The notes below the pieces were generated by a model. The model was not told where the DNA came from and made no database searches. It worked only from the letters and a program-made list of their open reading frames with translations. From Malacoraja senta (Eukaryota), in contig CM075989.1 of NCBI GenBank assembly GCA_038087875.1, forward strand, positions 19,222,001-19,286,000: a stretch of 64,000 nucleotides of DNA, read 5' to 3'. Position 1 is the first letter of the stretch, and every line of letters starts with the position of its first letter. Made by a program: the position numbers and the translations under genes. Positions 25 through 62,173 of the stretch are shown piece by piece.

Positions 25-243
25 TAGACACAAAATGCTGGAGTAACTCAGCGGGACAGGCAGCATCTCTGGATAGAAGGAATGGGTGACGTTTCGGGTC
101 GAGACCCTTCCACAGTTTGAAGAAGGTCTCGAGCGAAACGTCACCCGTTCCTTCTCTCCAGAGATGCTGCCTGTCCCGCTGAGTTACTCCAGCATTTTGT
201 GCCTATCTTCGGTGTAAACCAGCATCTGCAGTTCCTTCCTACA
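25..243. repeat. Fold-back (palindromic) Penelope-terminal-repeat element
   Basis: Two inverted arms of about 85-95 bp meeting at degenerate hammerhead cores (about 110-120). Confidence 0.8.
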
Positions 244-302
244 TATACCCCTTACTGGAGTACATTGTAGATCATTGAAAGTTACATTAGTCAAGTCAAG
301 AG

Positions 303-860
303 TGTTTTTTTTAAATTTTTTTATTAGAAGTACAATTGTATACAATCATATTTTCATAATACATTTTATGTACAGTTTCTTATTTTTTTTAATTTTGTAA
401 TAAAGAAGAAAAAGAAAAAGAAATTAGATAATGAAGAATAAAAAAATGTGAGATATATAGTGTGTGAAAAAGAAAAATAGAGAGTGAAAGAAGAAAGTTA
501 AGAAATAGAAAATAGAAGAAAAAGAGTAAAAGAAGAAAAGAGAAGAAAAAGAAAAGAGAAGTAAGGAGATCGTGTTTAATAATAATAATAATGTATGAAG
601 AGTTATGAAGATATTGCTGGTGCACATGTAGTTTATTTCTATCACCAAATCTTTAAGAACCTCAACTTTCTTTGAAATTCTCCTCAAGGTCCACTTTTTT
701 AACCTAAGCTTTCATCAAGTATAATTTTCTTTAGTCCAATGTCTGCTTGTCTTTTTAAATTATAATTCTGATAATTCTTTTATCTTTTAAAGGCGCTACG
801 TAAGTGTAAAAAGTTGCTATTATTGTTTTGTAGTATTTAACCTATTGTATTAATTTCTTG
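303..860 (-). mobile_element. Probable degenerate L1-like 3' end
   Basis: Terminus tttttattagaagtacaattgta resembles the 45091 element (ttttattagaagcaattgta); pyrimidine-rich UTR on -. Confidence 0.4.
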
Positions 861-922
861 TTGGTTGCACTTTGTGTCTATTCTTGTAAAACAGCATCTG
901 CAGTTCCTTGTTTCTACTGTAC

Positions 923-986
923 CTTCTTTGATGCTCGTCCCTTTCCAAATTGTCAAGATGCATCTGTGTAATTTGATCCACTTTGT
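923..986 (-). CDS. MYO5C: Myosin Vc exon 24 (DKVDQITQMHLDNLERDEHQR)
   Basis: 64 nt, tttttttacag|...|gtacag; phase 1 to 2; resembles EKMDNLTKQLFDDVQKEERQR. Confidence 0.82.
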
Positions 987-1196
987 CTGTAAAAAAAATA
1001 GAAATGATCAAATATGCATTGTGTAGTGGTTATAGAACTGGCTCGGTTCCAATCATCAGTTTCATTAATCAGTGTTAACAACATTGAGGATTCAATGTTA
1101 CAGCAGGGACTTGATCAAAATGGGTGCACCGATTTGCTTTCGTTTTCTCATCTGAGAGTAAATTCTGGATGAAGGTCTCACTTCAAGATCTCCTCC

Positions 1197-1397
1197 AGAA
1201 TCCTGTCTCACTGGAGCGTCATTTGCGTGTCACGCAGATGGCGCGCAAAGATTTTGTACATCCCAAAATCCTGGGGCGGCGGGCGTGTCACTGCCTACGT
1301 CACCACGCACCATGTAATGCACACCATGCGCGCGTCGTGACACGTAAATGATGTCGCGTAAATCACGCACAAATGACGCCCCAGTGGGACAGGCCCT
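1197..1397. mobile_element. Second copy of the same MITE, opposite orientation
   Basis: Interior is the reverse complement of 17090-17270; right end cagtgggacaggccct-taa. Confidence 0.65.
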
Positions 1398-1950
1398 TAA
1401 GTCTCCTCGGTCGCGCTAACTGCACTGTCAGAGGTGATGTTCAAAATGGTTGGTATCTATGTGCAGGTATGCACTCTTTACGCACCCTTCAGTTTACTTT
1501 ATTTTAGAGATACATTGTGGAAACTGGCTCTTTGGCCCACCGAGTCCTCGCCGACCAGTGATCTCCGCACGATAACACTATCCTACACACACTAGGGACA
1601 ATTTACAATTTTACCGAAGCCAATTAACCTACAAACTTGTATGTCTGGGAGTGTGGGAGGAAACCGGAGATCCCAGAGAAAACCCACACAGGTCACGGGG
1701 AGAACGTACAAACTCCGCACCCGTAGTCAGGATTGAACCTGGGACCCTGGCAATGTAAGGCAGCAACTCTACCGCTGTGCCACCGTGACTCCGTTTGGGG
1801 AGATTACCACCGTTTTTCTTCACGCCCAAAGACAGACAGAAGTCATCCAACACTTCTTGGCGGACCTAACACCTGGCGCCATTAATACTTGTGCACTAAC
1901 ATCTCTCGTGTTTGCCTTTCAAAATCTACTTCTGCAGAGAAAAACCATAC

Positions 1951-2044
1951 CTTTCATTTCTTGGGTCTGATCTTGGTGTTGCTTCTTCAACTTCTCATTT
2001 TGGCCCCGCAGTGATAACGTTTCCTTTCGAAGCTCCGACAACAC
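1951..2044 (-). CDS. MYO5C: Myosin Vc exon 23 (VLSELRKETLSLRGQNEKLKKQHQDQTQEMK)
   Basis: 94 nt, cgcag|...|gtatgg; coiled-coil composition, phase 0 to 1. Confidence 0.85.
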
Positions 2045-2202
2045 CTGCGAGAATTAAAAAAAAATAAAAGAAAGAATTAAGATAGAGGCACAAGGAAATG
2101 TAGATTCTGCAACCTCGAGCTGGAGGAACTCAGCGGGTCAGGCGGCGTCTGTGGAGGGAATGGACAGATGATGTTTCGGGGTCCAGATCCTTCTTCGAAG
2201 GA

Positions 2203-5084: not shown

Positions 5085-5941
5085 CTGTAACAAATATTGA
5101 ACAAAGTTAGGTCAACCTTCCATGGTGTCCTACATCAGCAATTGAGAAAATAAAATCTATTTAGTAGTTTCTTATATTTAAAAAAATGCTGTAGAAAAGT
5201 AGCAATGGGCTGTGTCCACCCACTCTCTGCAGGTTCAGGCTGACAAGAGCAGAGCTGTCGCCATGCCTGCTTGAGATTCAAATATGTTCTGTAGTGCATC
5301 TGCCGGTTTAGTTTAGAGATACGGTGCAGAAACAGGCCCTTCGGCCCACCGAGTCCGCACCGACCAGTGATCCCCGCGCGTTAACACTACCCTACACACA
5401 CTGGGGACAATTTTACATTTATACCAAGCCAATTAACCTACAAACCTGTACGTCTTTGGAGTGTGGGAAGAAAACGAAGATCTCGGAGAAAACCCACGCA
5501 GGTCACGGGGAGAACGTACAAACTCCGTAGTCAGGATCAAACCGGGTCTCTGGCGCTGTAAGGGAGTACCTCTTACGCCCCTCCACAGTGCCGCCCAAAG
5601 TTCATGAGAATCCTACTTGGACATGCCGGATCTTCTCACAAGCCTAAGAAAGTGCACTTTGCTGATCACCGCGCCAGTGTGAAGGGCTCAGATCAGGTTG
5701 CTGGTCTGAAGAAGGGTCCCGACCCCGAACATCACCTAACCATGTTCTCCAGAGATGTTGTCCGATCCGTTGAGTTACTCCATCACCTTGTGTCCATGTT
5801 TAGGTTGCTGGTGACATAGATGCCTAGGAGCCTGAAGCTAGCGACCATCTCCACTGCAGCCCCATTGACAAGGACAAATGGCAGACCAACGCCCTCATGT
5901 CGGAGTTGAGCGGGTTGCTCGGCCGCTGGCTTTAGTCTTAC

Positions 5942-6107
5942 CTTCCTGTAGCGTCTCCGGGCCAGCCATCCGCGGGTGTGGGACTGGATGACCACGATGG
6001 CCATCACGATGAGCTGGTAACGCCGCCGTACCAAGAAGCCGCGCCAATGCTTCTGGATAATGACGGTCGCCCACGCTTGCTTCAGGGTTGTGGCCGTCAA
6101 CATGTGC
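5942..6107 (-). CDS. MYO5C: Myosin Vc exon 20 (IQ3-4: IIQKHWRGFLVRR...IQSHTRGWLARRRYRK)
   Basis: 166 nt, tgaag|...|gtaaga; two IQ motifs. Confidence 0.93.
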
Positions 6108-6658
6108 CTTCAATGAAACAAACACATCCACACATTACTTGTGGAATTTCTCTGCCCCAGAAGGCAGTGGAGGCCAATTCACTGGACGAATTTAACAGAG
6201 TTAGTTAGAGCTCTTGGGGCTAACAGAATCAAGGGGTATGGGGAGAAGGCAGGCACGGGTTACTGATTGTGGATGATCAGCCATGATCACAATGAATGGC
6301 GGTGTTGGCTCGAAGGGTCGAATGGTCTCCTCCTGCACCTGTTGTCTATGTTCCTACATTAACCCTATCTATCCCTCTTATTTCAAGAGAGAGTTAGAAA
6401 TAGCTCTAAGGGCTAATGGAATCAAGGAATATGGGGAAAAAGCAGGAACGGGGTAATGACTTTTGATGATCAGTCATGATCAATTGAATGACGGTGCTGG
6501 CTCGAAGGGCCGAAGGGCCGAATGGCCTACTCCTGCACCTACTTTCCATGTTTCTATGTTATAATTTTACATACTTTTATTAAATTTATTTTTTCTTAAA
6601 TTTTGCAATTGTTTTATAAAGCAAGCAATAAATTCATTGTGGCGGGCAGTGTTCCTAC

Positions 6659-6870
6659 CGTATGGTACGCTCTCCACGAACATACTGCTGTAGGATAATG
6701 GCAGCTCGTTTGAGTGTGAGGAACTTTTTTCGTTGAATCCAGCTGCGATAATTTTTCTGAATGGTGATCGATGCTGCCCTAAGTCTGTCTGCGCGGAGTT
6801 TTTCCAAATAGGCCACTTGCCCTGCTCGGAAGAAAATCTTTGTTTTACCAAAGTGAAATTGGTTTGGATC
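6659..6870 (-). CDS. MYO5C: Myosin Vc exon 19 ([26 protein letters not shown]... IQ1-2)
   Basis: 212 nt, tgcag|...|gtagga. Confidence 0.95.
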
Positions 6871-6965
6871 CTGCAGGGAACAAAACAATTATCATTCACT
6901 AAAGTGAAATAGAAAAACTAAAATCCAATATGCTTGGTGTACAGAGTACAACATTGAATCGAATG

Positions 6966-7428
6966 GACTTTCATATGAAGAAAGACTGGATAGACTCGGC
7001 TTGTACTCGCTAGAATTTAGAAGATTGAGGGGGGATCTTATAGAAACTTACAAAATTCTTAAGGGGTTGGACAGGCTAGATGCAGGAAGATTGTTCCCGA
7101 TGTTGGGGAAGTCCAGAACAAGGGGTCACAGTTTAAGGATAAAGGGGAAATCTTTTAGGACTGAGATGAGAAAAACATTTTTTACACAGAGAGTGGTGAA
7201 TCTGTGGAATTCTCTGCCACAGAAGGTAGTTGAGGCCAGTTCATTGGTTATATTTAAGAGGGAGTTAGATGTGGCCCTTGTGGCTAAAGGGATCAAGGGG
7301 TATGGAGAGAAAGCAGGTACAGGATACTGAGTTGGATGATCAGCCATGATCATATTGAATGGCGGTGCAGGCTCGAAGGGCCGAATGGCCTACTCCTGCA
7401 CCTACTTTCTATGTTTCTATGTTTCTAT
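6966..7428 (+). mobile_element. CR1-type LINE 3' fragment
   Basis: Nearly the same sequence as 21100-21563. Confidence 0.9.
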
Positions 7429-8038
7429 GAAAGATACAACATGGAAACGGGCCCTTCAGCCCACCGAGTCCAAGCTGGCGAAATGTGTAGGCAGGAACTG
7501 CAGATGCTGGTTTACACCAAAGATAGACACAAAATACTGGAATAACTCTGCGGGACAGGCATCTCTGGAGAGAAGGGATGGGTGACGTTTCTCGTCCCGA
7601 AACATCACCTATTCCTTCTATCCAGAGATGCTGCCTGTCCCGCTGAGTTACCCCAGCATTTTGTGTCTATCTTTGAGTCCATGCTGACCATCGTTCACCC
7701 ATTCACACTAAATCCACCTGATCACATTTTTTGCACCGTCTCTACACATCAGGAGCAAATTCCTAAGGCCCTACAAATGTACAGTGTCAGACATCACATG
7801 TTGGTCTGAATGGGGCAAGTATCAGAACTGTGATCAGTTAAGAAAAAAAGTGTTGTCACTGACAAGGGTTAATACTATGTAGACAAAAATGCTGGAGAAA
7901 CTCAGCGGGTGAGGCAGCATCTATGGAGCGAAGGAATAGGTGACGTTTCGGGTCAAGACCCTTCTTCACGAAGGAATAGAACTCCAATACTAAGAACTCC
8001 AATACTAAGTTGGACGACAGTGTCCTTTGCATACCGAC

Positions 8039-8150
8039 CTGGATTAAACGCTGCAAGACCCCTTTGCAAATCTGTTTTTTGTCGTTTATTGCCAAATCGT
8101 GTTGCGACATCAAAATACGATAACGGCCGAAGAACTCAAAGTATGTCCAT
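8039..8150 (-). CDS. MYO5C: Myosin Vc exon 18 ([14 protein letters not shown]...[10 protein letters not shown])
   Basis: 112 nt, ttcag|...|gtcggt; converter. Confidence 0.93.
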
Positions 8151-8802
8151 CTGAAAATGAGATATTTACATTTCTGTTTTGCACAACTTCACTTGCTCCC
8201 ACCCAGGGTAGAGGATTTTAAAGGACGTGGGCTGAAGAGGAGAGATTTGAGAGAGGTCTCAGGGGCAGTCTTTGGAGCAGAGGGTTGTCTGGATCTAGAA
8301 CGAGCTGCCAGACACTTTTGAGATACAGCGTAGAAACAGGCCCTTCGGCCCACCAGTGATAGTACACCAGCACTATCCTGCGCACCAGGGACAATTTAAC
8401 TACATTACCAAAGCCAATTAACCTACAAACCGGTCCATCATTGGAGTGTGGGAGGAAACCAGAGCGCCGGAAAAAACTCATGCGGTCACAGGGAGAATGT
8501 ACAAACTCCATACAGACAGCACCCGTAGTCAGGATGGAACCCGGGTCTCTGCCGCAGTAAGGCATCAACTATGCCACTGAGCCACCCTATAGAAGTGACA
8601 CAATTCCGACTTTTGAAAGACGTTTGAACAGATATATGGTTCAGAAGGGTTTAGATGGATGTGGGCCAAATGTAGGCAAATGGGACTAGCCCAACATGCC
8701 AACTTGGTCGGCATGAACAAGATGGGCCGAAGGGCTGGTTTCCCTGCTGTACAGCTCTGAGATTCACACAGTGATGGCAGGATGGCAAAGGCTGTTGTCT
8801 AC

Positions 8803-8889
8803 CTGGAAGGATAACTCTGTGCGCTGATCCGGATCGTCTCCAGTACGCCACATGCTCTCAGCTGCTGGACCACTCTCTTGCAATCATAT
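8803..8889 (-). CDS. MYO5C: Myosin Vc exon 17 ([29 protein letters not shown])
   Basis: 87 nt, tttag|...|gtagac; SH1/SH2 region with Vc-type SAQSYPSR. Confidence 0.95.
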
Positions 8890-9462
8890 CTAAAATCACA
8901 AGTTCAGTTTAGTTTAGAGATACAGCACAGAAACAGGCCCTTCTGCCCACCGAGTCTGTTCCGACCAGTGATCTCCCGTACATTAGCGTTATCCTACATA
9001 CTTGCGACAATTTACAATTTTTACCAAAGTCAACTAACCTACAAACTTGTAGGTCTTTGGAATGTGGGAGGAAACCAGAGCACCTGGAGAAAACCCATGC
9101 AGTCAAGTCTAGAGTGTTTTATTGTCATATGTCCCAGATAGAACAATGAAATTCGTACTTGCTGCAGCACAACAGAATATGTCATCATAATAAATAATAA
9201 CAAAAATTAAGAAAAAAACAAACAAGCAATAACAGTGCAATAATAATAATACTTATTATTTATTTAATTAACGGGCAAACTCCGCACAGACAGCACCCGT
9301 AGTCAGGGTCGAACCAGGGTCTCTGGCGCTGTGAGGCAGCAACTCTACCGCTGCGCCACCCCGCCACGTCACACCATTGAACATGAAATTGATATTTTGC
9401 TCACGTCTTTAGATTATGTAATATTTTAATTTTGGAACCAACTTTAAGAAGTTGACAACTTA

Positions 9463-9567
<105 letters not shown>

Positions 9568-9713
9568 TTAATATAATTTAAAGAGGATTAGAAAGTCAAA
9601 CATTTATTTCTGATTTATTAAATAATTTTAATATAATTTAAGCAGTATTTAAAAAGTTTTTTTTTAATTCACGACTATGTTAGAAGATCTTACTACAGAA
9701 GAAACAACTGTAC

Positions 9714-9848
9714 CTTACTGCCGACTGTGGTCCTGTGTTGCTTGTTAAAGGATTTGAAGCCCGCTCTTGCCGCCCGGACTTTAATATTCGCATTTAGGTT
9801 CCCCGTGGTCGATTCATTGTCTTGGAAGAAATTAGCCAGTAGATGGAT
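9714..9848 (-). CDS. MYO5C: Myosin Vc exon 15 (loop 2: IHLLANFFQDN...KQHRTTVGSK)
   Basis: 135 nt, cacag|...|gtacag; short Vc-type loop 2 ending RTTVGSK. Confidence 0.92.
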
Positions 9849-10330
9849 CTGTGTAATTTTTTTAAAAAGCAAAGACTAAAGCAAAGGCAGCACCTCTAAA
9901 ATGGTAAACATCAAACAACATATGTTTGTCAATGGTGCGATCACCCTGTACACTCACCACCCACTAAGAACAATTTTACAACTTGTGAAATCCAATTAAC
10001 CTTCAAAGCTGCACGTCTTTGGAGTGTAGGAGGAAACCGGAGCACCTGGAGAAACCCCCCGTGGTCACAGGGAGAACGTACAAATTCCACACGGACAGCT
10101 TCCGTAGTCAGGGTCAAACCCGGGTCTCTGCTGCTGTAAGGCAGCAACTCTACCCCTGCGCCATTATACTGTGCCGCCCCTAATCATTAATGTACTGTGT
10201 TATTGATCAGTGTATATTTATCTTTGTGTTATTGTGTTCATGGGCCTGTTAAGTTGCAGCAAGTTAAAAACTTCAATGAAATACTCCTGACTCTCTTAAA
10301 CTATGTTACATTACAGAGATGGTCACAAAC

Positions 10331-10414
10331 CTTACTTTTCTTCAGTACATTGATGAGTTCTTCATACAACGTATCTCTGTTTTTCTCCAGGAATCCTTCA
10401 CATTCATATTGCAC
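10331..10414 (-). CDS. MYO5C: Myosin Vc exon 14 ([28 protein letters not shown])
   Basis: 84 nt, acaag|...|gtttgt; FLEKNRD motif. Confidence 0.93.
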
Positions 10415-11687
10415 CTTGTCGAAATAAGATACTACCATTATTCCAAGCCTCTAAGTAAACAAATCTCATTTTAGTTTTAGTTTAGTTTAGAGATACAGCG
10501 CGGAAACAGACCCCCCCCCAAAGTCCGCACCGACCAGCGATCCCCACACACTAACACTATCCTACACACTAGGGACAATTTTACATTTATACCAAGCCAA
10601 TTAACGTACAAACCTGTACGTCTTTGGAGTGCGGGAGGAAAGCGGCGATCTCAGAGAAAAGCCGCACGGTCACGGGGAGAACGTACAAACTCCGTACAGA
10701 CAGCAGCCGTGGTCAGGATCGAACCCGGGTCTCTGGTGCTGTAAACGCTGCAAGGCAGCAACTTTACCGCTGCGCCACCGTGTTTTAGTTTAGATTGTTG
10801 CACCGAAGTACAGTGCGTAGCGTTTTTGTCATGCGCTATCCGGTCAGTGAAAAAACTGGATAGTACATCTCGTATGTGTATGTGACGAATAAACTTGACT
10901 TGACTATTCATGATTACATCAACCCGTCCACTGTTCAGTTCAGTTTATTGTCACGTGTACCGATCTACAGTGAAAAGCTCTCGTGCAGAATAAGTGCTAT
11001 AATGTTTAGTGCAATCTTATGTTTGATACGTTGATGTTCGTGGAAATCATCAAGGGCAAGGCAGAGACATAGGCAGATCAGATAATACGATACATTCATA
11101 CAATCATGCCCGACTCAAGTATAATAGATAGAACAATGGGGAAGATACAGAGTGCAGAATGTAGTTCTCAGCATTGTAGCCCATCAGTTCCATCGACACG
11201 AAGATAGACAAAAAATGCTGGAGTAACTCAGCGGATCAGGCAGCATCTCTGGAGAAAAGGAATAGGTGACGTTTCGGGTGGAGACCCAAACCTTCTGCAG
11301 TGAAGAAGGGTCTCGACCCAAACCTTCACCTATTCCTTCTCTCCGGAGATGCTGCCTGTCCCGCTGAGTTACTCCCCAGCATTTTGTGTCTATCTTTGGT
11401 GTAAACAAGCATCAGCAGCTCCTTGCTACACAGTTCCATAGACAGTGTGAGATGGGGTTGAGATAAATCGGAGAGTGCCCGATCTCGTGGAAGGACCATT
11501 CAGAAGCCTGATACCAGAGGTGAAGAATTTCCCAAGTCCGGTGGTGTGCGTTTTCAAGCTTCTGGACCTTCTGGCTGATGGGATCAGGGAGGAGGAGGAA
11601 TGACCAGGGTGGGACAAGTCTTTGATTAGGTTGGCTGCTTCTCCAAGGCAGCGTGAAGTATTGACGGAGTGTATTGGAGCCACTCAC

Positions 11688-11813
11688 CTTGTCAGCAAAG
11701 TGCTGGATGATGAAAGCCTTCCTCATCATTCTGGGCTTCTCAAAGAGAGGGTTCTTGTTCAAGTAGTTATTCTGTAGTTTCTGAAGCCAATTGTCCTCTG
11801 TTCCCTGCGGCAG
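11688..11813 (-). CDS. MYO5C: Myosin Vc exon 13 ([13 protein letters not shown]...FIIQHFADK)
   Basis: 126 nt, cacag|...|gtgagt. Confidence 0.95.
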
Positions 11814-13135: not shown

Positions 13136-13276
13136 CAGACATTCCTCATCGAGCAACTCCAATATGCCCATTTTAGCCTCTATCAAGTCAATGCACGGCT
13201 GGTTATCGTTGAACTCTATCAAGGTCCATGGGATGTCCTCCTTCATGTATTCATCTTGTTCCAGTTTAAACACATG
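13136..13276 (-). CDS. MYO5C: Myosin Vc exon 12 ([17 protein letters not shown]...[11 protein letters not shown])
   Basis: 141 nt, tccag|...|gtaagt. Confidence 0.95.
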
Positions 13277-15151: not shown

Positions 15152-15307
<156 letters not shown>

Positions 15308-48979: not shown

Positions 48980-49013
48980 GGTCTGAAGAAGGGTTCCGAC
49001 TCGAAACGTCACC
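48980..49013 (+). ncRNA. Hammerhead motif (intact core)
   Basis: ggt-CTGAAGA-A-GGGTT cc GACTC-GAAA-cg-TC-acc; stem II retained through G-U pairs. Confidence 0.55.
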
Positions 49014-51459: not shown

Positions 51460-51807
51460 TCTACCTGCACACCTGTATACTTGCGCACCTGTATACCTGC
51501 ACACCTGCATACCTACACACCTGCATACCTGCACACCTGCACACCTGCATACCTACACACCTGCATAGCTACACACCTGCATACCTACACACCTGCATAG
51601 CTACACACCTGCATAGCTACACACCTGCATAGCTACACACCTGCATAGCTGCACACCTGCATAGCTGCACACCTGCATAGCTACACACCTGCATAGCTAC
51701 ACACCTGCATAGCTACACACCTGCATAGCTACACACCTGTATAGCTACACACCTGTATACCTACACACCTGTATACCTACACACCTGTATACCTACACAC
51801 CTGTATG
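51460..51807. repeat. 16-bp minisatellite (ctgcatagctacacac)n, copy 1
   Basis: Perfect and variant 16-mer tandem array with no spacers. Confidence 0.95.
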
Positions 51808-52027
51808 CTACCATCCTCTGTGTGAAAAACTCTGGTTCCTAGTAAATCTTTCCCCTCTCACCTTAAATCTGTGTTCTATGGACCACTATTTCCCCTATAA
51901 TCTGCTACACCTTCATATGATCACCCCCTCAACCTCCTGCGCTTCCAGCAATCGGTGAGTGGAAATAGACCGATGGTATACCTACACACCTGTATGTCTT
52001 TGGAGTGTGGGATTTCTACCTGCCAAT

Positions 52028-52351
52028 TCTACCTGCACACCTGTATACTTGCACACCTGCATACCTACACACCTGCATACCTACACACCTGCATAGCTAC
52101 ACACCTGCATAGCTACACACCTGCATAGCTACACACCTGCATAGCTACACACCTGCATAGCTACACACCTGCATAGCTACACACCTGCATAGCTACACAC
52201 CTGCATAGCTACACACCTGCATAGCTACACACCTGCATAGCTACACACCTGCATAGCTACACACCTGTATACCTACACACCTGTATACCTACACACCTGT
52301 ATACCTACACACCTGTATACCTACACACCTGTATACCTACACACCTGTATG
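52028..52351. repeat. 16-bp minisatellite, copy 2
   Basis: Same unit, different variant order and count. Confidence 0.95.
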
Positions 52352-52773
52352 CTACCATCCTCTGTGTGAAAAACTCTGGTTCCTAGTAAATCTTTCCCCT
52401 CTCACCTTAAATCTGTGTTCTATGGACCACTATTTCCCCTATAATCTGCTACACCTTCATATGATCACCCCCTCAACCTCCTGCGCTTCCAGCAATCGGT
52501 GAGTGGAAATAGACCGATGGTATACCTACACACCTGTATGTCTTTGGAGTGTGGGAGAAAACCAGGGATCCCGGGGAAAACCCACGCAGGTCACGGGGAG
52601 AACGTACAAAACTCCATACAGACGGCACCCGTGGTCAGGATCGAACCAACTTTACAGCCGCGCCCACCTCTCGAAAAATAAATGCTAGCATCCCATTCAC
52701 CTTCCTTACTACCGAGTCGATTCGTATCAAATCTGTATTCGTATCGTATCGGATCTGGGGATCCTGGTTCATC

Positions 52774-52807
52774 AGTCTGAAGAAGGGTTTCGGCCCGAAA
52801 CGTTACC
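52774..52807 (+). ncRNA. Hammerhead motif (intact core, 2-bp stem I)
   Basis: agt-CTGAAGA-A-GGGTT tc GGCCC-GAAA-cg-TT-acc. Confidence 0.5.
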
Positions 52808-52869
52808 TATTTCCTTCGCTCCATAGATGCTGCTGCACCCGCTGAGTTTCTCCAGCATTTTTGTGTACC

Positions 52870-53540
52870 TATGAAAGTAAGCATGCAGGTACAGCAGGCA
52901 GTGAAGAAAGCGAATGGCATGTTGGCCTTTATAACAAGAGGAATCAAATATAGGAGCAAAGAGGTCCTTCTGCAGTTGTACAGAGCCCTAGTGAGACCAC
53001 ACCTGGAGTATTGTGTGCAGCTTTGGTCCCCTAATTTGAGGAAGGACATTCTTGCTATTGAGGGAGTGCAGAGTAGGTTTACAAGGTTAATTCCCAGGAT
53101 GGTGGGACTGGCATATGCTGAGAGAATGGAGCAGCTGGGCTTGTACACCCTGGAGTTTAGAAGGATGAGAGGGAATCTCATTGAAACATATAAGATTGTT
53201 AAGGGCTATGACACACTAGAGGCAGGAAACATGTTCCAGATGTTGGGGGAGTCCAGAACCAGGGGCCACAGTTTGAGAATAAGTAGTAAGCCATTTAGAA
53301 CGGAGACCAGGAAACACTTTTTTTTTCCACAGAGTGGCGAGTCTGTGGAATTCTCTGCCCCAGAGGACGGTGGAGGCAGGTTCTCTGGATGCTTTCAAGA
53401 GAGAGGCTCTTAAAAATAGCGGAGTCAGGGGAAATGGGGAGAAGGCAGGAACGGGGTACTGATTGGGGATGATCAGCCATGATCACATTGAATGGCGGTG
53501 CTGGCTCCAAATGGCCTACTCCTACACCTGTTGTCTATTG
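52870..53540 (+). mobile_element. CR1-type LINE 3' fragment, second subfamily
   Basis: QQAVKKANGMLAFI...LVRPHLEYC...; frameshift near the end. Confidence 0.88.
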
Positions 53541-54163
53541 ATTCACAAATTAACTTTTTGGGGATCCTGCACCGGCGCTCCCAAGTCCCTTTTACACCCT
53601 CCCTCCCGTCAAACGAGGGCTCAATGTATTGTTGAACTGTCCATTCAGAGGGAAACAGCCGCTCGCTCTCACTGCTGCAGCATCCTGTTCCAGCAGCCAG
53701 CTAACGTCATGCCTCTGACTCTCTGCCAATGCACCCGAACACGCGTGAAAAGCCACCACTCTCCCCGACAGACAGTCACACCGACCACAGGGAAAGCCAT
53801 GGATTAAAAAGTTGCTTTAACAACACCGAACCTTCAAACATAAAGACAACTTCACAGCCGCGTTGCATATGTCAGGTGAAATCGAGCACCTGACCCACTT
53901 CCCAGCAACAAGTTCAACTCACTTGGAAACTACATGGGGCAGTGTGGTTGGAAACGTTCCTTGCATTGCCACTTTAATGCAGGATTCAACTGTAAAGGTT
54001 TCTGTTCAATTGCTGTTTTATTGTCACCTACACCTGCTTGCAGTGAAATGCTTTGCGTTCCACACAAGCCAGTCAAATCATAAACACAATCATGCATAGG
54101 GGAATCAAAAACTTGTTTAGCTTTGGTGCGGGAGCGCAGAGGAAGTGCAGAGAATGGAGTTAC

Positions 54164-54190
54164 CTTGGTGTACAGTTCAGCCACTGCCAT
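54164..54190 (-). CDS. MYO5C: Myosin Vc exon 1 (MAVAELYTK)
   Basis: Kozak gtgaccATGG, 27 nt, donor AAG|gtaact; matches the MYO5C N-terminus MAVAELYT. Confidence 0.9.
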
Positions 54191-54450
54191 GGTCACAGGG
54201 AAGGTTGTTCCAACAAGCGCCGGGGAGACTGGTTCATGGTCCGGGCTGGACGCTCAAATCCACCTGCCCCGCCTTCCCAGTCCCCTCTCTCTCTCTCTCT
54301 GTCCCTGCCTGTTTTAGACACACAAACACACGGAAAGCAATCCGGCTCAGCTTCCCCAAGTCTGAATCTCTCTCTTGCAGACACGACCTCGTGACCGAGG
54401 GAGTGCCTGTAACTAACTCCTGTAAGTGGCAGGTAGGTCGGAACAAGGCA
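54191..54450 (-). promoter_or_regulatory. Putative MYO5C 5'UTR and proximal promoter
   Basis: Repeat-free, locally GC-richer stretch just upstream of the ATG; GC-box-like ccccgcct (54267-54274), E-box cacctg (54261-54266). TSS cannot be determined from sequence. Confidence 0.45.
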
Positions 54451-54889
54451 GTGAGGGAAAAAAAACACTCGCATTTAACCCTTCAAACTTCTGATAAGGA
54501 CACGGTGTGCAAGTGAGGCGTGAGATAAGGCAATTTAGCATTTAAAATATAACATATCACTCCAGATTAAATACACCACAGTCACACTTGCGTAACTTTG
54601 CAAGATCCATGCAAGTCCCACTAAATTGGCTGTAATGCTTTAAGTAACATTACAAAGTAACATTAGTAAGTCCCCAAAAGTTTATCGAATTTGTGTGTAA
54701 AAAGCTTAGCAGAGAGTATTTTAGCAGTAACTTGCTTTGTCTTCGTGCCGTTTAAATAGTCGTATTAAATCAATTTTAATAACATGTCATTCCATCTTCT
54801 TAAAAAGTCCACGACGCCTGTGCCTTGTATCCCGTTTACAAAGACCTCAAATCGGATAACAGTATTAACTTTCACAGCCCGCGAGTAGA

Positions 54890-55100
54890 CCAGACACAGA
54901 AATACTGGAGTAACTCAGTGGGACAGGCAGCTTCTCTGGAGAGAAGGAATGGGTGACGTTTCGGGTCGAGACCCTTCTTCAGACCGTCTGAAACATCACC
55001 CATTCCTTCTCTCCAGAGATGCTGCCTGTCCCGCTGAGTTACTCCAGCATTTTCGAAATCTACCTTCGATTTAAACCAGCATCTGCAGTTCTTTCCGACA
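54890..55100. repeat. Fold-back Penelope-terminal-repeat element upstream of MYO5C
   Basis: Inverted arms ctggagtaactcag...gggtgacgtttc / gaaacatcaccc...ctgagttactccag. Confidence 0.8.
54952..54985 (-). ncRNA. Hammerhead motif (intact core) between MYO5A and MYO5C
   Basis: ggt-CTGAAGA-A-GGGTC tc GACCC-GAAA-cg-TC-acc. Confidence 0.6.
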
Positions 55101-55424
55101 CATTGAAAATAATGTCCTTCAAAAGAAAACACGATCTCTTTCTTTTAAGAAAGGCAACGTTTTTTTCTCTCATAAACATAATTTGTAAGATGTTACAGCA
55201 ACATAACTTAGTGATCTTGCATCAACCTATTGCCACTTGGCAGTGTAATAATGAACAGCAAAGACAGACACAAAATGCTGGAGTAACTCAGCGGGTTAGG
55301 CAGCATTTCTGGAGAGAAGGATTAGGTGACCTTTCATCAGACAGAGTCAGGGAGTGGGAAACTAGAGGTATGGGAAGGTACAGAACAAAAGCAGAGCCTG
55401 CATCGATGAGCTACAAAAAGTAAT

Positions 55425-55830
55425 GACCACTGCCCAGGCCATCACCGGCTCTGACCTCCCCACCATCGAAGGGATCTATCGTAGTCGCTGCCTCAAAAGG
55501 GCAGCCAAAATCATCAAGGACCCACACCATCCTCCTGGCCACACACTCATCTCACCACTGCCATCAGGAAGAAGGTACAGGAGCCTGAAAACTGTGATGT
55601 CCAGGTTCAGGAACAGTTTCTTCCCCACAGCCATCAGGCTATTAAACACAACGAATAAGCTCTGAGCTCTGAACTGCAAAACACTATATTATTATTGCAC
55701 TATTTATTGAACTTTTTATTTTTTCCCCCATTATGAACTATGTTTACATATTCACATATTCTGTTGTGCTGCAGCAAGTAAGAATTTCATTGTCCCCGTC
55801 CGGGACATATGACATTAAAACACTCTTGAC
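55425..55830 (+). mobile_element. Rex1/Babar-type LINE 3' fragment
   Basis: TAQAITGSDLPTIEGIYRSRCLK...FFPTAIRLLN. Confidence 0.8.
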
Positions 55831-55834
55831 TCTT

Positions 55835-56340
55835 GGAAAGGTGGAGCCCACAATGGTCCATTGTTGGCTGGGTGGTGGTGCCAACAAAGGAATACAAATG
55901 GTGAAATTAGCAAGAGGACTATGGTGGGGCAGGGACAAAGAGAAAGGGGATGTAAGGGTTACTTGAAGCTGGATATAAAATCAATATTCATGCCACTGGG
56001 GTGTAAATACGAGGTGTTGTTCCTCCAATTTGAATTTGGCCTCACTCTGACAGTGGAGGAGGCCCAGGACAGAAAAGTCAGTGTGGGAGTGGGAAGGGGA
56101 GTTAAAATGTTTGGCAACTGGGAGGCCAAGGCAGACTGAGCGTAGGTGTTCAGTTGCCTAGTCAGAGTTTCATCTTAGTTCCCTTTGATCTCTCGTTTTC
56201 ACACCTTACCCTTTCATATCCCTCATTTTCCTCTCCCCTGACTGTCTGAAGAAGGGTCTTGACCCAAAATGTCACCCACTTCTTCTATCCAGAGATGCTG
56301 CCTGTCCTGGTGAGTTACTCCAGCATTTTGTGTCTTTATT
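55835..56340. mobile_element. Penelope-like fragment (GIY-YIG tail on -) with inverted terminal-repeat piece on +
   Basis: Minus strand reads LPVAKHFNSPSHSHTDFSVLGLLHCQSEAKFKLEEQHLVF; a degenerate hammerhead follows on + at about 56243-56277. Confidence 0.7.
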
Positions 56341-58189
56341 CAACATTGCTAAAGTGCAATATAATTTAAGGATGAGGTGTGCTTGAGTTGGGTATGTCAG
56401 CAAATTGGAGCAATTATCTGATGCCTTGGAGACTCTCTTAATGCGAGAAGTGTGGTGATTGGGTCCAGGACCCAAGCTGTCTGTTGTGGAGTGCATAGGT
56501 CAGGACGTGTTGTTAGTCAGGGGGGCAATTCACTGTCGTTGAAAAATTAAAACACTGCAGATGCTGAAACCCCCCCCACAAAATGGTGGAACATCCAGCA
56601 GATCAAGCAACATCTGTGGAAGGAGAAATAGAGATGATGTTTCAGGTCAGAGCCACTTTTGTTAGAATCGTCCCGTTTGCAATGAAGGGTGCGCAAGGAA
56701 CTGTAGATGCTGGTTTATGCAACAACAACAAAAAGACAAAGTGCTGGAGTAACTCAGCGAGTCAGGCAGCATCTCTGGGGAACAATGATGGTTCATATGT
56801 TGTAGCAGCAGAATTGGTCCATTTGGCCCATCAAGTCTACTCCGCCATTCAAAACATGGTTGATCTATCTTTCCCTCTCAACTCCATTCTCCTGCCTTCA
56901 CCCCACAACTCTTGACACCCGTACATCAAAGGTGACAATAGGTGACAATTTGTGTTAGGATCCTTCTTCACTGTGGTTGGGGTAAAGTTGGAAGGTTGGC
57001 AGATGGTTGGATAAAGGTCTCACACTTTTTGTCTTTTAATCTCTGGCTTTTGTCCAACCATCTACCAATCGAACCCCCCCGCACCTGTATCCACCTATCA
57101 CTCACCAGGCTTCGTCCTGCCCCCATCTCTCTCTTCACCACAATAATCAGTCTGATGAAGGGTCATGAACCGAAACATCACCTATCCATGTTCTCCAGGG
57201 ATGCTGCCTGACCCTCTGAGTTACTCCAGCACTTTGTGTCTTTTTTTGTTTGTTATGAAGGGTACCATGATTCTACAATGGGACATAGGCAGATGTAGAT
57301 GGAGTGAGTGGACAGAATACTTGCAAATGGACTTTAATGTCGGGATGTGTAAGGTCAGAGAAGTCATAAAGGCAGATTATTATGTAGATGGCGAGAGGCT
57401 GCGACTGAATGAAGTGGAGGGATCTATGTGCACTGTCTAGTGCGTGAATTACAAAAACCTAGCGGGCAGGTTCAACGAGCTCAGGAAGCAAACTGCAATT
57501 TGGCCTTCATTGCAAAGGGATTAGAGTTTAAAGATAAAGAGGGGCTTTTTTGTTGTTTTACTGATTAGGAAAGAGGAGGGTACTGTAAAGCCAGATGGAT
57601 GGATGTGGATGGAAAGGGGCGAGGGGAGAAGAGGAGAAAGAGGATGATAAAAGGGAAATAGAGGATTCCCATAGGGGATAAGGGAATTCTTATCTGATAA
57701 CTTTTTGTTTCCTTTTCACCTCTACCCTTTGTCATTCACTCCACATCTGCCACCCCCCTCCCCCTCTCTGTATCCACCTATCACTTGAGGCTTTGCCCCA
57801 CCCCCATCTCTCTTTTCCAACTTTCTCTTCCCCCCCCCCCATCTCCATCAGTCTGAAGAAGGGTTCCCAATCTGAAATATCAGCTGTCCATTCCCTCCAC
57901 AGATTGCTGACTGACCCGCTGAGTTCCTCCACCCGGTTTTGTTGGGTTTTTTTTGCTAATTAATCTTATCGAGTCCATGTCACAAGATTAGAAATTGTTC
58001 AGCCAGAGCTGAACACACTTCTCGGCATCTGCATACAATGGCGTCTATCTTGCGCTTCTTGTGCGTGGAAAGATTGGTGGAAACAGGGCCGCGACGTGAA
58101 CGCTCTTTCCTTGACCCCTCCTAATTAATGACCCACTCATGCATTACACACTAACTTCAGACTCAGTATCGACTTTAAATGTTCTGGTT

Positions 58190-58490
58190 AGGAAGCGGCC
58201 GTTCCAGACACCCCAAGCCGCTGAGAGGGTTCTCCCGACTCCGGAGCACCATCACCGGCGAGAGGGCCTGAAACATCGGGCCTCCGTAGCGGCGACTGTG
58301 GAGGCCTCAATAGGCCGACTATGGTGAACATGGGGATGGGACTGGACTTTGTGCCTTCCCCTACAGTGGGAACCATTGTGGGGGGATGTTTTTATGTTTA
58401 ATGTTAAACTTCTTCTTTAATGCTATGTTGTATTTTTATTAGTGTGCTGCAAGGACATCTGAATTTCCCCTGAAAAGGGGATTAATAAAG

Positions 58491-58522
<32 letters not shown>
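58190..58522 (+). mobile_element. Unclassified non-autonomous retroelement with (ATT)n tail
   Basis: CpG-rich body, then gaatttcccc...gggattaataaagta followed by an (att)n tail. Confidence 0.45.
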
Positions 58523-58660
58523 TTAAATGCCACCTGAAATGACAATTCATTAGTATTGCAGCCAAGTAGTATTTTTCTGCAATGCTTGCATTCATAAATA
58601 AATTTACAAATTCGACAGATTTAAACCATAAAAAAGAAGCCAGTTCATAGTGTTGAAATT

Positions 58661-58666
58661 TTTATT
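58661..58666 (-). terminator. Candidate distal polyadenylation signal AATAAA of MYO5A
   Basis: tttatt on +; U-rich sequence (ggcttcttttttatggttt) downstream on -. Confidence 0.55.
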
Positions 58667-59480
58667 TTACAAGTTGGACATTAATTTCCTAAGTCAATAT
58701 ACATTTGCCATAATGCACACAATGACTAATTGCTACAAACGGGAAAGACTAGTGTTTCTGAATTTTTCTGTACATCAATATCATACTCAGTGTTTACTAC
58801 CTGGTTAAACACAATAGGTTTTCAGGTCAATGTCCCTCAACAACATACTATAGCAACACACGTTTTCTTCCATGACCACTGCCGATAATTTAAATATCTC
58901 TAGCTTCTTAACACTAACCGCGAGTAATGTACGTACGTTTTATGATACAAAGAAGTAAAAAGCCATATAAAGCAGAAAACTTGAGACGATATAATATGTG
59001 GGGCAAAACTATAAAGTGCATAAATGATATTTCAAAGGAATATGACCTTCATATTTTGTTCAGCAATTTAGTTACTCATCGTATTCTAAATCAATTCTAA
59101 AGTTTCACTTTCTAAACCCAGAATTTGTCAAAATGGCTTAAAATGAAAGTACTGGTTTTGGGAGGAGACAGTGTTGAGGAGCGGCAACCAGTAACTTGGA
59201 CTTTACCAATTTCCCAGACAATGTTTTTTTTTAAACTTAAATCCGTTCTGTCTACGCAGTTTCTGCTCTCTTGACAAAAAGCCACTTTTTTTTTTTTTTA
59301 AAGATTGCCCAAAGCTTATTATGCTTTTGAAATATGTTATTTTCGGTGAATTGAGCAAACATCTGTAAGGCTCTGGGAACTTTGTCCGTTAAGACGTAAA
59401 GACTGAAATGTGTATAACTGCAAAATCCACTACATGTCATGAGCAAATCAAATATTCAGTATAGTTTCAGTCAATGTTTC

Positions 59481-59578
59481 AATCTGAAGAAGGGTCTCGA
59501 CCCGAAATGTCACCCATTCTTTCTCTCCAGAGACGCTGCCTGTCCCGCTGAGTTACTTCAGCGTTTGGTGTCTATCTT
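59481..59578 (+). mobile_element. Penelope terminal-repeat fragment with hammerhead core inside the MYO5A 3'UTR (antisense to the mRNA)
   Basis: aatCTGAAGAagggtctcgacccGAAAtgTCacccattc...gctgagttacttcagc. Confidence 0.7.
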
Positions 59579-60779
59579 TAATATATAGTCTGATTTGTTT
59601 TCAATAATCTTTGTGGATGAAATAAAGGACTCTGTAGATGTATACAGGGTATTATATTAACTTCTACCCTGTGAGACTTTGAAATACCATACACCTTTCA
59701 GTTATATATTACCAGGACTATAAATAGGCACATATAATACACCATAGAGACTTGTAAACCATTGTCCTGAAACCAGATTTCTGAAATTGGCTGGTTGGTT
59801 CATGAATTAAATAACTTAAAATATGTAAACAATGAAGGGTAGAACAAGTGTATACATTTTGGCCACCATGAAGTGACATTTTAAATCAAATTTATAATTC
59901 AGAGTACCTATTGTCCTTTAAAGTAAGACCTCCCAGAATTGATTCTATAGAACAACATCCGAAGCCATTGGGACAGTGGAATGAAAGCTGTCTAGTGAGA
60001 TTGATGCCTGCATCTTAACTACTGCAACCTGCATGTAACTTGACTCGAACGTCACTAAATACTGAAAAATGCTGAAAATACTGGAGAAAAAAAAAATACT
60101 TCTACTCAGCTTGTTTACAATTGTCATCTTTAACCCTAATATACACAGTAACAAACAAATTAAAGAGCAAGTCCTGTATTGTGAAGTCTCCACAGATTCC
60201 AACAGGAGAGTATTTAAAAGGCCAAACGATATTGTGCCAAATACTGCAAAAAAAAAAAAAGTTTTTTTTCAACTGGCTATATTTTTAATCTGTTGCCAAA
60301 TATCCATCTGAGAATTTGATTACTTTTCAGCGCTTTTGTGCTTTGCCAGAATTGGACCTTAAAATGTTAACTACATGTGAATCAGTTTAAAACGGGCTTG
60401 ATAAATGCATAATGGAGACGTGTTATATTTTTAGTGACATCTTGACGTTACACTGTCTGCTGTCAAATGTGTGCAGCTCAACATATTAAAGGGACACTGG
60501 ACAGATTACCATCATAATTGGCTATGTAAACACCAACAATGTAATCTCTAGATTATATTCTAACAGAGCTTTGTATTCTACATCATTTGTATATAGACCT
60601 TACATAAGAGTTATTCGACAAAATGATGCTATATCAGGCAGTTGTATTCCCCTTAGGTAGATATCTAACGGGTATGGTGTGACCTAATTTACAGTTGTAA
60701 ATTTGAAGTATATTCACTGAAACTGCACAAGAGCAGTCATCACTGGATATTTACTGGAGTTGCATGAAAGTGTTTGGCA

Positions 60780-60785
60780 TTTATT
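60780..60785 (-). terminator. Candidate proximal polyadenylation signal AATAAA of MYO5A
   Basis: tttatt on +, about 95 nt after the stop codon. Confidence 0.35.
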
Positions 60786-60878
60786 TTCAATGTACATTCC
60801 TTGTTAACAGATGCTTCGCCACTGCTCTAGCTGTGTGTAACGGATGGATGTGATCGCTAGTTTTCCAGAACCTTCTCC

Positions 60879-61031
60879 TCACACACGTAACAGGAAACCA
60901 AGGTTCATGCTGCCTGGAATCTGAATGCTTTCAAGCGCTAAAGAAGATGGATTGAACGGGAACGTGACGGGGAATATGTGTTTCGCATCCATTAGCAACT
61001 GCGGAGAGTCTTTTCGATTTTGTAAACGCAC
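60879..61031 (-). CDS. MYO5A: Myosin Va last coding exon ([50 protein letters not shown])
   Basis: Polypyrimidine ctctctccag acceptor, 50 codons plus TGA; near-identical to the MYO5A C-terminus [29 protein letters not shown]; missed by the ORF track. Confidence 0.93.
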
Positions 61032-61544
61032 CTGGAGAGAGAGAGGGGATAAAAAAAAATTAATGGATTAGTATTGTCGGAGTCTTAACGCAATCGGAGT
61101 TTACAAATACTCCCCATAGGTTTCAGATCTCTGTACGTTTAAAAAAAAAAAAAAAAAAAAAATTCAGACATTGAAAGGAAGGTAAATAGAGTTGCTGTCT
61201 TACAGAGCCAGAGACCCGGGTTTGATCCTGACTATGGGTGCTGTCTTGTACGGAGCTTGTACAGTGTCCCTGTGACCGCGTGGGTTTTCTCCGGGTGCTC
61301 CGGTTTCCTCCCACATTCCAAAGACGTTCAGGTTTATAGGTTAATTGGCTTCTGTAAATTGCCCTTAGTGTGTAGGGTGGAATAGTAGGCATTGACTTGG
61401 CATTGACTCGGTGAGGGGGGGGGGTGTTTCCAAGCTGTACCTCTAAAAACTAAACTAATCTATAAATTCTGATGATTGTGAAAAACATACCAAAATACAT
61501 ACTTTTTAATTTCTAGTCAGAAGGGAACATGCAATATTACAAGG

Positions 61545-61646
61545 CTAACAGCATCATCAAGGACCCACACCATCCTGGCCACTCACTCATCTCCCGGCTG
61601 CCTTCAGGTAGAAGGTACAGGAGCCTGAAATCTGCAACATCCAGGT
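61545..61646 (+). mobile_element. Rex1/Babar-type fragment truncated by the gap
   Basis: SIIKDPHHPGHSLISRLPSGRRYRSLKSATSR|NNN. Confidence 0.8.
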
Positions 61647-61846
61647 NNNNNNNNNNNNNNNNNNNNNNNNNNNNNNNNNNNNNNNNNNNNNNNNNNNNNN
61701 NNNNNNNNNNNNNNNNNNNNNNNNNNNNNNNNNNNNNNNNNNNNNNNNNNNNNNNNNNNNNNNNNNNNNNNNNNNNNNNNNNNNNNNNNNNNNNNNNNNN
61801 NNNNNNNNNNNNNNNNNNNNNNNNNNNNNNNNNNNNNNNNNNNNNN
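61647..61846. other. Assembly gap (200 N)
   Basis: Run of exactly 200 N, a typical fixed-length scaffolding gap. Confidence 0.99.
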
Positions 61847-62022
61847 CACTGGAAAAGAAGACACAAGGCACTGGAATAACTCAGCGGGTCAGACACCAGC
61901 CCTGGAGAACATGGATAGGTGAGGTTTTGGGTCAGGACTGATTGTGGTGAGGGGGGGGGGGGGATTTGGGGGATAAGAAAGCTGGGAGTGAGGTGGGAGC
62001 AGGACAAAGTCGGGAGAGTGAT

Positions 62023-62173
62023 AAAAAATGCTGGAGAAGCTCAGCGGGTGAGGCAGCATCTATGGAGAGAAGGAATAGGCGACGTTTCGGGTCGAGAGTC
62101 TCGACCCGAAACGCCGCCTATTCCTTCTCTCCATAGATGCTGCCTCACCCGCTGAGTTTCTCTAGCATTTTTT
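62023..62173. repeat. Near-perfect 75-bp-arm palindrome of Penelope terminal repeat
   Basis: Arms 62023-62097 and 62099-62173, centred on hammerhead stem II (gggtcgaga-g-tctcgaccc). Confidence 0.85.

Follow-up and report, generated by a model that had tools for sequence, protein, structure and literature searches.

Hammerhead motifs in the window

The window analysed here is a 64,000-nt stretch of the Malacoraja senta genome (GCA_038087875.1, contig CM075989.1, positions 19,222,001 to 19,286,000, forward strand). It contains 57 fragments of a repeat that carries a minimal hammerhead ribozyme motif, found with a profile built from 15 window copies; the same profile gave 0 matches on the reversed window and on the reversed genomic sample described below. 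We identify these fragments, with high confidence, as the 3' pseudo-long terminal repeat (pLTR) ends of Neptune-type Penelope-like elements (PLEs), whose inserted copies evolve neutrally. The hammerhead region is covered by 33 of the 57 fragments. Nine of the 33 keep CUGANGA, GAAA and the UH site without indels, and six pass all criteria (boxes, UH, stems I and II, palindrome). An earlier note on this DNA had counted more than 20 motifs, which holds for homologous copies, only six of them being intact. Its six intact cores read as given at their coordinates and are identical to the six that pass, and each of its 15 degenerate positions has a corresponding copy. The copies in the window are as follows, with ORF for open reading frame, UTR for untranslated region and TSD for target-site duplication.

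25934..25967 (34-mer), minus strand: intact minimal hammerhead of the UUCG-loop/GUU-site subfamily, head of a ~94-nt short unit with a 13-nt flanking TSD
38989..39022, minus strand: intact minimal hammerhead; upstream, the copy retains ~290 nt of 3' UTR and ORF end
39517..39550, plus strand: intact minimal hammerhead, 193 nt past the Neptune ORF stop codon; the copy spans about 39305-39635
48980..49013, plus strand: hammerhead intact by rule, in a short unit beginning at the ribozyme edge
52774..52807, plus strand: intact minimal hammerhead of the UUCG-loop subfamily, in a short unit beginning at the ribozyme edge
54952..54985, minus strand: intact minimal hammerhead, arm of a head-to-head inverted pair whose other arm is 54990-55099 (+)
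22768..23235, minus strand: longest window copy, with C-terminal codons of the PLE endonuclease domain, a 211-nt 3' UTR, a decayed hammerhead (22866-22899) and the full ~130-nt tail
40910..41280, plus strand: copy with ORF end, 3' UTR, decayed hammerhead (41147-41180) and full tail
7..242, unstranded: two truncated pLTR ends in head-to-head inverted arrangement, each with a damaged hammerhead
30538..30749, unstranded: head-to-head inverted pair, hammerhead damaged
62021..62215, unstranded: inverted pair with its junction inside stem-loop II, a ~75-bp hairpin with sub-threshold Rfam microRNA matches
5703..59596, unstranded: other decayed or truncated copies, e.g. at 5704, 7968, 11301, 11953, 20492, 25269, 25488, 33506, 33709, 40366, 50670, 56244, 57149, 57850 and 59482

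The motif runs from the 5' strand of stem I through CUGAAGA, an extra A, stem II, GAAA, a C-G pair and UH to the 3' strand of stem I. Judged by its letters, this is type-I hammerhead topology without loop III, and the minimal type-I assignment made earlier stands: the boxes, the UH site and the type-I order are all present. Further features of the class are the extra base after A9, the G10.1-C11.1 pair and a palindromic 15.1-16.1 (ACGU), which permits a dimeric helix III. The stems had been described less accurately. For stem II, 5 bp and a 2-nt loop were given; no fold assigns the fifth pair a probability above 0, and the stem is 4 bp closed by a CUCG, UUCG or CCCG tetraloop. The third pair of stem I is present in several window copies, where the extra G that makes it lies at a truncation or inversion junction, and the common form has two pairs (A-G-U with A-C-C or G-C-C, giving G-C and U-A or U-G). 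Among 99 sampled core-intact copies, the start letters are AGTCTGAAGAA in 51 and GGTCTGAAGAA in 3. Rfam hammerhead families had no match in the window, nor, at E up to 10, in 39480-39660 around the copy at 39517.

The carrier element

In long copies the element consists of an ORF encoding reverse transcriptase (RT), a CX4CxxC linker and a GIY-YIG endonuclease, followed by a pyrimidine-rich 3' UTR of 80-240 nt, the hammerhead, and a tail with two ends, at about 95 or about 130 nt. Four window copies, at 22898(-), 39517(+), 39021(-) and 41147(+), reach upstream into the pyrimidine-rich UTR and the last ORF codons. Walking upstream in the genome led to a natural copy (L071) with a 572-aa open frame and the hammerhead 103 nt past its stop. 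This ORF (P0003) contains YIDD and, at residue 439, a C-X4-C-X2-C linker between RT and endonuclease; its nearest Atlas clusters, at 0.97, carry RVT_1, HTH_animal and GIY-YIG. The ORF C-terminus is joined to the motif in 100 copies (duplicates included). Among ORF-linked copies, the subfamilies have UTRs of about 90, 105, 114, 180, 210 and 235 nt, and the hammerhead and tail are common to several subfamilies with differing UTRs. The location in PLE terminal repeats, already proposed in the earlier note, is confirmed by the motif lying 80-240 nt behind an RT/GIY-YIG ORF.

By the criteria of PMC8557442, the element would be an endonuclease-positive PLE with a Neptune (or Nematis) linker. That source gives the CX2-5CxxC linker as common to Neptune and Nematis, and the clade name used here is read from the linker motif alone. 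Two points weigh against the assignment. The Pfam matches of the L071 ORF to RVT_1 (E 1.7e-5) and GIY-YIG (E 8.7e-4) are both below the curated cut-offs, and a full-length element with a 5' pLTR was absent among 20 long loci, the longest being 5'-truncated inside the ORF region.

A 27-nt tandem repeat of variable copy number lies in the 5' part of the Neptune ORF region (L072:6200-6550 (-), L074:4100-4530). At the other end, the ~100-nt tail (e.g. window 41181-41280) is conserved between subfamilies as much as the ribozyme is. It has complementary segments, AGATGCTG with CAGCATCT, and a GAG-TWW-CTC hairpin. The tail is likely to be a binding and priming site for the protein of the element, and we treat it as a candidate for that role.

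Abundance in the genome

To the 1.94-Gb genome as a whole, three patterns were applied. An exact 32-mer had 10,683 matches and its control 0, so the motif is not a product of chance. A core descriptor with most of stem II left free had 55,179 matches (control 0), and a 12-mer at the ribozyme start had 170,510 sites (control 225). A sample of 30 blocks of 40 kb (1.2 Mb), picked by round coordinates, contained 512 fragments, of which 369 lie across the ribozyme region and 27 are fully intact. Fragments of ribozyme plus tail fill 4.1% of the sampled DNA; extrapolation to the genome gives about 800,000 fragments and about 44,000 intact motifs. Short ends of this kind number well over 100,000 in the genome, usually with a decayed motif, and the hammerheads in the scattered copies are likely to be idle.

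The statement that the genome holds very many such motifs is upheld by the 32-mer, descriptor and 12-mer counts. The novelty that it implied is not, since such motifs, mostly single and from truncated PLEs, had already been reported on a genome-wide scale for fish, coelacanth and Xenopus (PMC4209133). Both the class of motif and its connection with PLEs have been known since 2014, and the finding as first written is ordinary. What the density does offer is precision: with 4% of the sampled DNA in one segment, insertion ends can be mapped precisely.

Truncated and inverted copies

The copies are 5'-truncated, and for 194 of 569 fragments (24 of the 57 in the window) an inverted partner in head-to-head orientation lies at most 60 nt away. 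In a set of 110 short non-inverted units, a flanking repeat of at least 8 nt was found in 20 (control mean 2.4) and one of at least 10 nt in 13 (control 0.07). The TSD-flanked units cluster near 95 and 130 nt, i.e. at two 3' ends about 35 nt apart. Truncation at the 5' end, inverted 5' copies and an optional 30-40-nt tail are all present, as in Neptune-clade PLEs.

Some inverted pLTR pairs in the window (62022-62173, 11222-11372, 38926-38997 and 30634-30715) form long near-perfect hairpins with sub-threshold Rfam microRNA matches. These matches (MIR1858, MIR2118 and others) were rejected as microRNAs, none of them reaching threshold and the best, at 62022-62173 and 11222-11372, being inverted pLTR pairs. 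An inverted piece also lies behind the tail of the copy at 38989..39022(-) and would fold that copy into a long hairpin. RNA was examined in one polyA RNA-seq run (X24), possibly from another species and of a library type that would miss small cleavage products. The element accounts for 20,362 of its 7,335,232 reads, with the strands about equal over hammerhead and tail. Because about a third of the fragments are paired and both strands occur in polyA RNA, the inverted pairs may supply host transcripts with much double-stranded RNA.

The earlier note had taken the short copies for retrozyme-like pieces. On such a reading they would be units independent of an autonomous element that cleave themselves as dimers and spread through their own (circular) RNA. 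The huge copy number and the short, uniform, TSD-bearing units would suit such a cycle, one passenger-amplified variant (see below) demonstrates that pieces can multiply without a parent, and retrozymes have been reported as PLE derivatives, including in one chondrichthyan (bioRxiv 10.64898/2026.07.22.740005). The layout of the copies argues otherwise. Among 119 tandem arrays with a period of at least 30 in 1.26 Mb, four array rows overlap fragments and a single array repeats the whole unit, 1.8 times; no array inside the window contains the motif, and the 175 same-strand neighbours within 1 kb have no common spacing. A cycle based on cleavage predicts that units start at the cut, and starts at the cut site are not enriched. 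Moreover, the short units share their diagnostic bases with ORF-bearing subfamilies, and their read coverage is equal on both strands, as in passive read-through. We consider the retrozyme reading largely refuted and give it very little credence. The pieces are without tandem arrays and are 5'-truncated, often inverted, sometimes TSD-flanked PLE insertion ends.

A hotspot of 5' ends at the ribozyme edge

To map 5' ends, 563 fragments were placed against 64 ORF-linked references. About a third of them (192) have their start no more than 5 nt from the ribozyme's first base. Expressed as a stop rate, 192 of the 299 fragments that reach the ribozyme edge stop there, 0.058 per nt as against 0.003-0.009 farther off, and the map shows that most reverse transcripts reaching the ribozyme end at its 5' edge. 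Read depth in the polyA run has the same step at this edge. At the cleavage site there is no excess of 5' ends (20, with 73 in 20 neighbouring positions; p=0.70). This fits an uncleaved template, as in PMC11167929, and the map shows that the ribozyme cut site is not used for making it.

Most of the non-inverted hotspot copies (104 of 118) have unique flanks, with 48% pyrimidines as against 83% in true UTRs; of the others, 8 have upstream sequence in common with further copies and 6 are inversions that had been missed. A strict pyrimidine-tract context was found at 12,280 sites, compared with the 170,510 sites of the 12-mer, a ratio to be read with the undercount that decay causes in the stricter pattern. 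In a young subfamily, the first 100 listed copies start at T3 in 15 cases, at G2 in 39 and at A1 in 19, at most three bases further in 20, and continue upstream in 7; this tally was made by hand from the first upstream mismatch, with a search pattern biased against UTR-bearing copies. No description of a hotspot of copy starts at the ribozyme edge was found in the literature searched, which excluded most subscription papers. The hotspot bears on the role of PLE hammerheads and on the formation of pLTRs and inverted repeats.

The explanation that we favour places the edge at the start of an RNA. Insertion would always initiate in the tail, and ribozyme and tail would be copied most often because every insertion starts there. 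The commonest unit, of ~95 or 130 nt, would then come from reverse transcription primed on the tail at the element RNA's 5' end, with the reverse transcript running off the capped 5' end at the A of TCA-GTC, the letters that open the ribozyme, much like the 'strong-stop' DNA of long terminal repeat (LTR) elements. That the short unit is run-off cDNA from capped RNA begun at the ribozyme edge seems to us possible, at somewhat less than an even chance. That the hammerhead doubles as the core promoter, with an initiator (Inr) in its first bases and contacts resembling the motif ten element (MTE) and downstream promoter element (DPE) over stem II and GAAAC-GUC, and that strong-stop-like run-off is the dominant form of insertion, is a more doubtful proposal. 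In the main subfamily, the edge has an exact Drosophila Inr, 8/10 of the MTE and 4/5 of the DPE at proper spacing (fly consensus motifs), an equal match being present at 3 of 3,627 Inr sites outside the element. The first non-matching base is G in 25 of 72 copies, against 15.9 expected (p=0.01), and reverse transcriptases are able to put an additional base opposite the cap. By analogy, the pair of 3' ends and the lack of ends at the cleavage site would match the mechanism of anole Poseidon. If true, the promoter and run-off reading would explain the inverted 5' repeats of PLEs and the solo ribozyme motifs that fill PLE-rich genomes.

Several observations count against a start of transcription at the edge. 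No pile-up of read starts or ends was present anywhere on the element in the one polyA run, and capped ends at the ribozyme edge were not seen. Run-off requires a tandem layout, and none of the 20 long loci showed one, since a full-length element with a 5' pLTR was not among them. The commonest young-copy start is the G after the predicted +1 A, followed by the A and then the T. The promoter match was made post hoc and overlaps letters fixed by the hammerhead, its MTE component drops to 7/10 in one subfamily, and the DPE, taken here from the fly consensus, is reported as rare in humans. A-to-G transitions can produce the excess of G. Finally, transcription of D. virilis Penelope starts not at helix I itself but farther upstream, ahead of an intron that ends, on its 3' side, at helix I (PMC2377424).

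The same ends could come from the same element without any promoter, if, on the 3' end of a long RNA, the reverse transcriptase stalls at the junction of ribozyme and C-rich tract, or if the new DNA folds back at the palindrome TCAG-N-CTGA. A pyrimidine-rich tract (83% C+T) lies just upstream of the edge, 1,059 genomic sites carry perfect inversions centred on the palindrome, 74 of the 194 inverted fragments end at the hotspot, and the ends are spread across about 10 nt, not fixed on a single base. Set against this, the stop rate in the tract and the ORF is low (0.003-0.004 per nt) for copies extending beyond the edge, and 104 of the 192 hotspot copies are non-inverted with unique flanks. Stalling or fold-back may be the answer, with a probability a little under one half; we regard it and run-off as about equally likely.

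A third possibility is that a spliceosomal 3' splice site lies at the edge, in the manner of D. virilis Penelope, where the intron end maps to the 5' end of helix I, and that the short copies derive from spliced RNAs. A pyrimidine tract and YAG stand directly before TCTGAAG in all subfamilies despite their diverging UTRs. Starts at the base after AG, however, account for only 15 of the 100 young copies, a shared first exon was not found upstream of the hotspot copies, no spliced junction of ORF end and hammerhead was found in the DNA examined, and a GT..AG joint is absent among the joints listed (15, from four runs). We judge splicing improbable here, and less likely than either run-off or stalling.

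Folding, selection and decay of the motif

Folding models disfavour the active fold, so naked hammerhead RNA is predicted to be weakly active, in line with PMC4209133. In isolated 34-mers the probability of stem II ranges from 0.09 to 0.98 depending on the copy; the copy at 48980..49013, with two possible G-U pairs in stem II, has 0.09 even in isolation. With flanks included the probability drops, often through pairing of the purine-rich core with the pyrimidine run behind it. The energy of the dimeric hammerhead is about -6 kcal/mol (-0.1 in one copy) in a model without tertiary contacts.

Subfamily differences were analysed in 245 near-complete copies over 93 columns. Linked non-CpG differences occur in 21 of the 93 columns and in none of the 15 strict core positions (0/21; P=0.015). 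Within the 34-mer there are five diagnostic columns: two bases of the loop, H17 (C/U), and two A-to-G changes by which pairing is retained as U-G. This avoidance of the catalytic core fits selection on the hammerhead in parent elements. The inserted copies decay neutrally, with core CpGs lost as fast as tail CpGs: 31% in the core and 27% in the tail overall, and 27% and 22% in upstream-anchored copies (66 of 71).

The stems themselves vary little. The pairing retained across variants that had been noted earlier is, if read as covariation, not supported by a shuffle test: 1 of 342 pair cells is two-sided, and 327 of 500 shuffles score as high. The stem variants are one-sided U-A/U-G wobble changes, and the similarity of the subfamilies is too great for covariation to show. 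A genome-wide search for double changes (658 matches) was also rejected as a source of covariation, the first 100 listed being, by hand count, 69 with an A-A mismatch and 17 with a standard pair; a similar search in stem I returned only truncation junctions and known subfamilies. The A-A stem II mismatch has its own history. In 18 of 30 fetched double-change loci the flanks are the same, one inverted hammerhead-tail insertion being carried as a passenger in another repeat, and this insertion has been multiplied several hundred times (L212, L214, L215, L218-L222, L227-L229, L231, L235-L240).

Some observations stand against a catalytic motif kept in parents and released in copies. With flanks included, the probability of stem II is at most 0.35 and the hammerhead is not the minimum-energy fold in context; the dimeric hammerhead fold lies 13-31 kcal/mol above the best dimer fold. 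No true covariation was found in the stems across the 342 pair cells, and RNAalifold gave no consensus structure for 57 of the 67 ORF-linked copies (10 near-duplicate, deleted or chimeric ones left out). In anchored copies, non-CpG mismatches are lower in the core (3.5%) than in the tail (5.8%; p=0.016), which subfamily variation in the tail can explain and which possibly reflects weak selection on some copies.

The sequence might instead be conserved for another reason, such as protein binding or a promoter, and not be, or no longer be, a catalytic hammerhead in this lineage. Its 2-bp stem I, lack of covariation and unfavourable folding are in keeping with this, as is the GUU site of the UUCG subfamily; elsewhere, 8 of 9 tested Xenopus dimers did not cleave (bioRxiv 10.64898/2026.07.22.740005), and Poseidon insertion in vitro was unimpaired by hammerhead mutants (PMC11167929). 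On the other hand, the subfamily changes sit exactly at positions that a hammerhead tolerates, and the anole PLE hammerhead cleaves with the protein of the element and is rescued by a C3G/G8C double change (PMC11167929). We think this alternative unlikely. Selection probably keeps the hammerhead in active parent elements only. Taken together, we are fairly confident in the explanation as a whole, in which the motifs are Neptune-type pLTR ends present as short truncated or inverted copies, and the motif is selected in active parents only.

A repeat headed by a delta-type ribozyme motif and other repeats

A separate SINE-like (short interspersed element-like) repeat of ~170 nt, at window 57965-58118 (-), has at its 5' end a motif of the hepatitis delta virus (HDV) ribozyme type that resembles the CPEB3 ribozyme. 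The window copy scores 28.5 bits against Rfam CPEB3_ribozyme, and another copy (L279) scores 36.3 bits, above the 35-bit threshold; of 12 fetched loci, 9 gave an Rfam match at E<0.1. The P3/L3 core, 13 nt long, is identical to the Rfam consensus (mammalian CPEB3 ribozyme) and has 1,175 genomic matches, with 1 in the control. By eye, the motif has a 6-bp P1 starting with G-U, almost no P4, a C in J4/2, and a 7-bp P2 that departs from the Rfam consensus in each of its strands. Another fold than the pseudoknot is predicted to have the minimum energy. The copies begin close to or exactly at the predicted cut, finish in AAG repeats and have apparent target-site duplications. An origin in a CPEB3 intron was rejected: the CPEB ZZ-domain was not matched on the contig of the window, and the core occurs in 1,175 copies. 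Because its 3' end reads like an ORF C-terminus, the repeat may be an internally deleted element, presumably of the Ingi/Vingi type. Further loci are listed here.

L154, L182, L190, L199, L204, L271-L282: further copies of the HDV-type repeat

The CPEB3 ribozyme is conserved among mammals, and HDV-like ribozymes are common at retrotransposon 5' ends (PMC10919898, PMC8256844, bioRxiv 10.64898/2026.10.24.761493). A shallow literature search found no report of this repeat family, which may offer a way to find a relative of the mammalian CPEB3 ribozyme among mobile elements. This repeat and the unrelated hotspot of 5' ends are the parts worth pursuing.

Most of the window is filled by the ends of a second RT-bearing repeat and many copies of a second SINE family. 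Stretches of these lie at 6908-7330, 20704-21465, 36972-37370, 52850-53413, 62779-63279 and elsewhere. These other repeats look like CR1 LINEs (long interspersed elements) and V-SINEs of cartilaginous fish, which we assume them to be. A 16-nt tandem repeat of about 56 copies occupies 51462-52347, and no host exon was identified in the window.

Comparison with known systems

The motif agrees closely with the PLE hammerheads of PMC4209133. Both have the CUGANGA and GAAA boxes, the extra base between A9 and 10.1, G10.1-C11.1, a palindromic 15.2/16.2, no loop III and a location in the pLTR; both occur as thousands of single copies from truncated PLEs, with inverted neighbours. The Schistosoma families in that study differ in having a stem II of 7-8 bp and a stem I of 4-5 bp, compared with 4 and 2 bp here. 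Its counts were about 4,000 in coelacanth and 9,000 in Xenopus, against 55,179 here with a different descriptor, and shark, skate or ray terms are absent from two of its supplementary files.

The element resembles the Neptune clade (Craig et al. 2021, PMC8557442) in its RT with C-terminal GIY-YIG, CX2-5CxxC linker, strong 5' truncation, inverted 5' copies and optional 30-40-nt tail; the linker on which the clade is based is also that of Nematis. Poseidon PAc of Anolis (Frangieh et al. 2024, PMC11167929) likewise has its hammerhead about 100 nt upstream of two 3' ends and no insertion ends at the cleavage site. There, two internal sites some 110 nt beyond the hammerhead serve for initiation of reverse transcription, uncleaved RNA is the template, and the hammerhead cleaves only with the protein of the element. 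PAc differs in belonging to another clade and in an ORF that starts inside the hammerhead, and an edge pile-up of 5' ends is not reported in the available text. In other PLEs the hammerhead cleaves weakly, as a dimer (as given in the review PMC6765202) or with the protein of the element.

Metazoan non-LTR retrozymes (PMC7229834; bioRxiv 10.64898/2026.07.22.740005) share the type-I hammerhead, PLE ancestry and many solo copies, and are distinguished by tandem repeats with a hammerhead per unit and by circular RNA; such arrays are not present here. For a ribozyme that doubles as a promoter, Pr77 of L1Tc (PMC8256844) is a precedent, with the difference that its ribozyme is HDV-like. For a core promoter inside a PLE pLTR, the precedent is the Inr and DPE promoter in the pLTR of D. 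virilis Penelope (PMC2377424).

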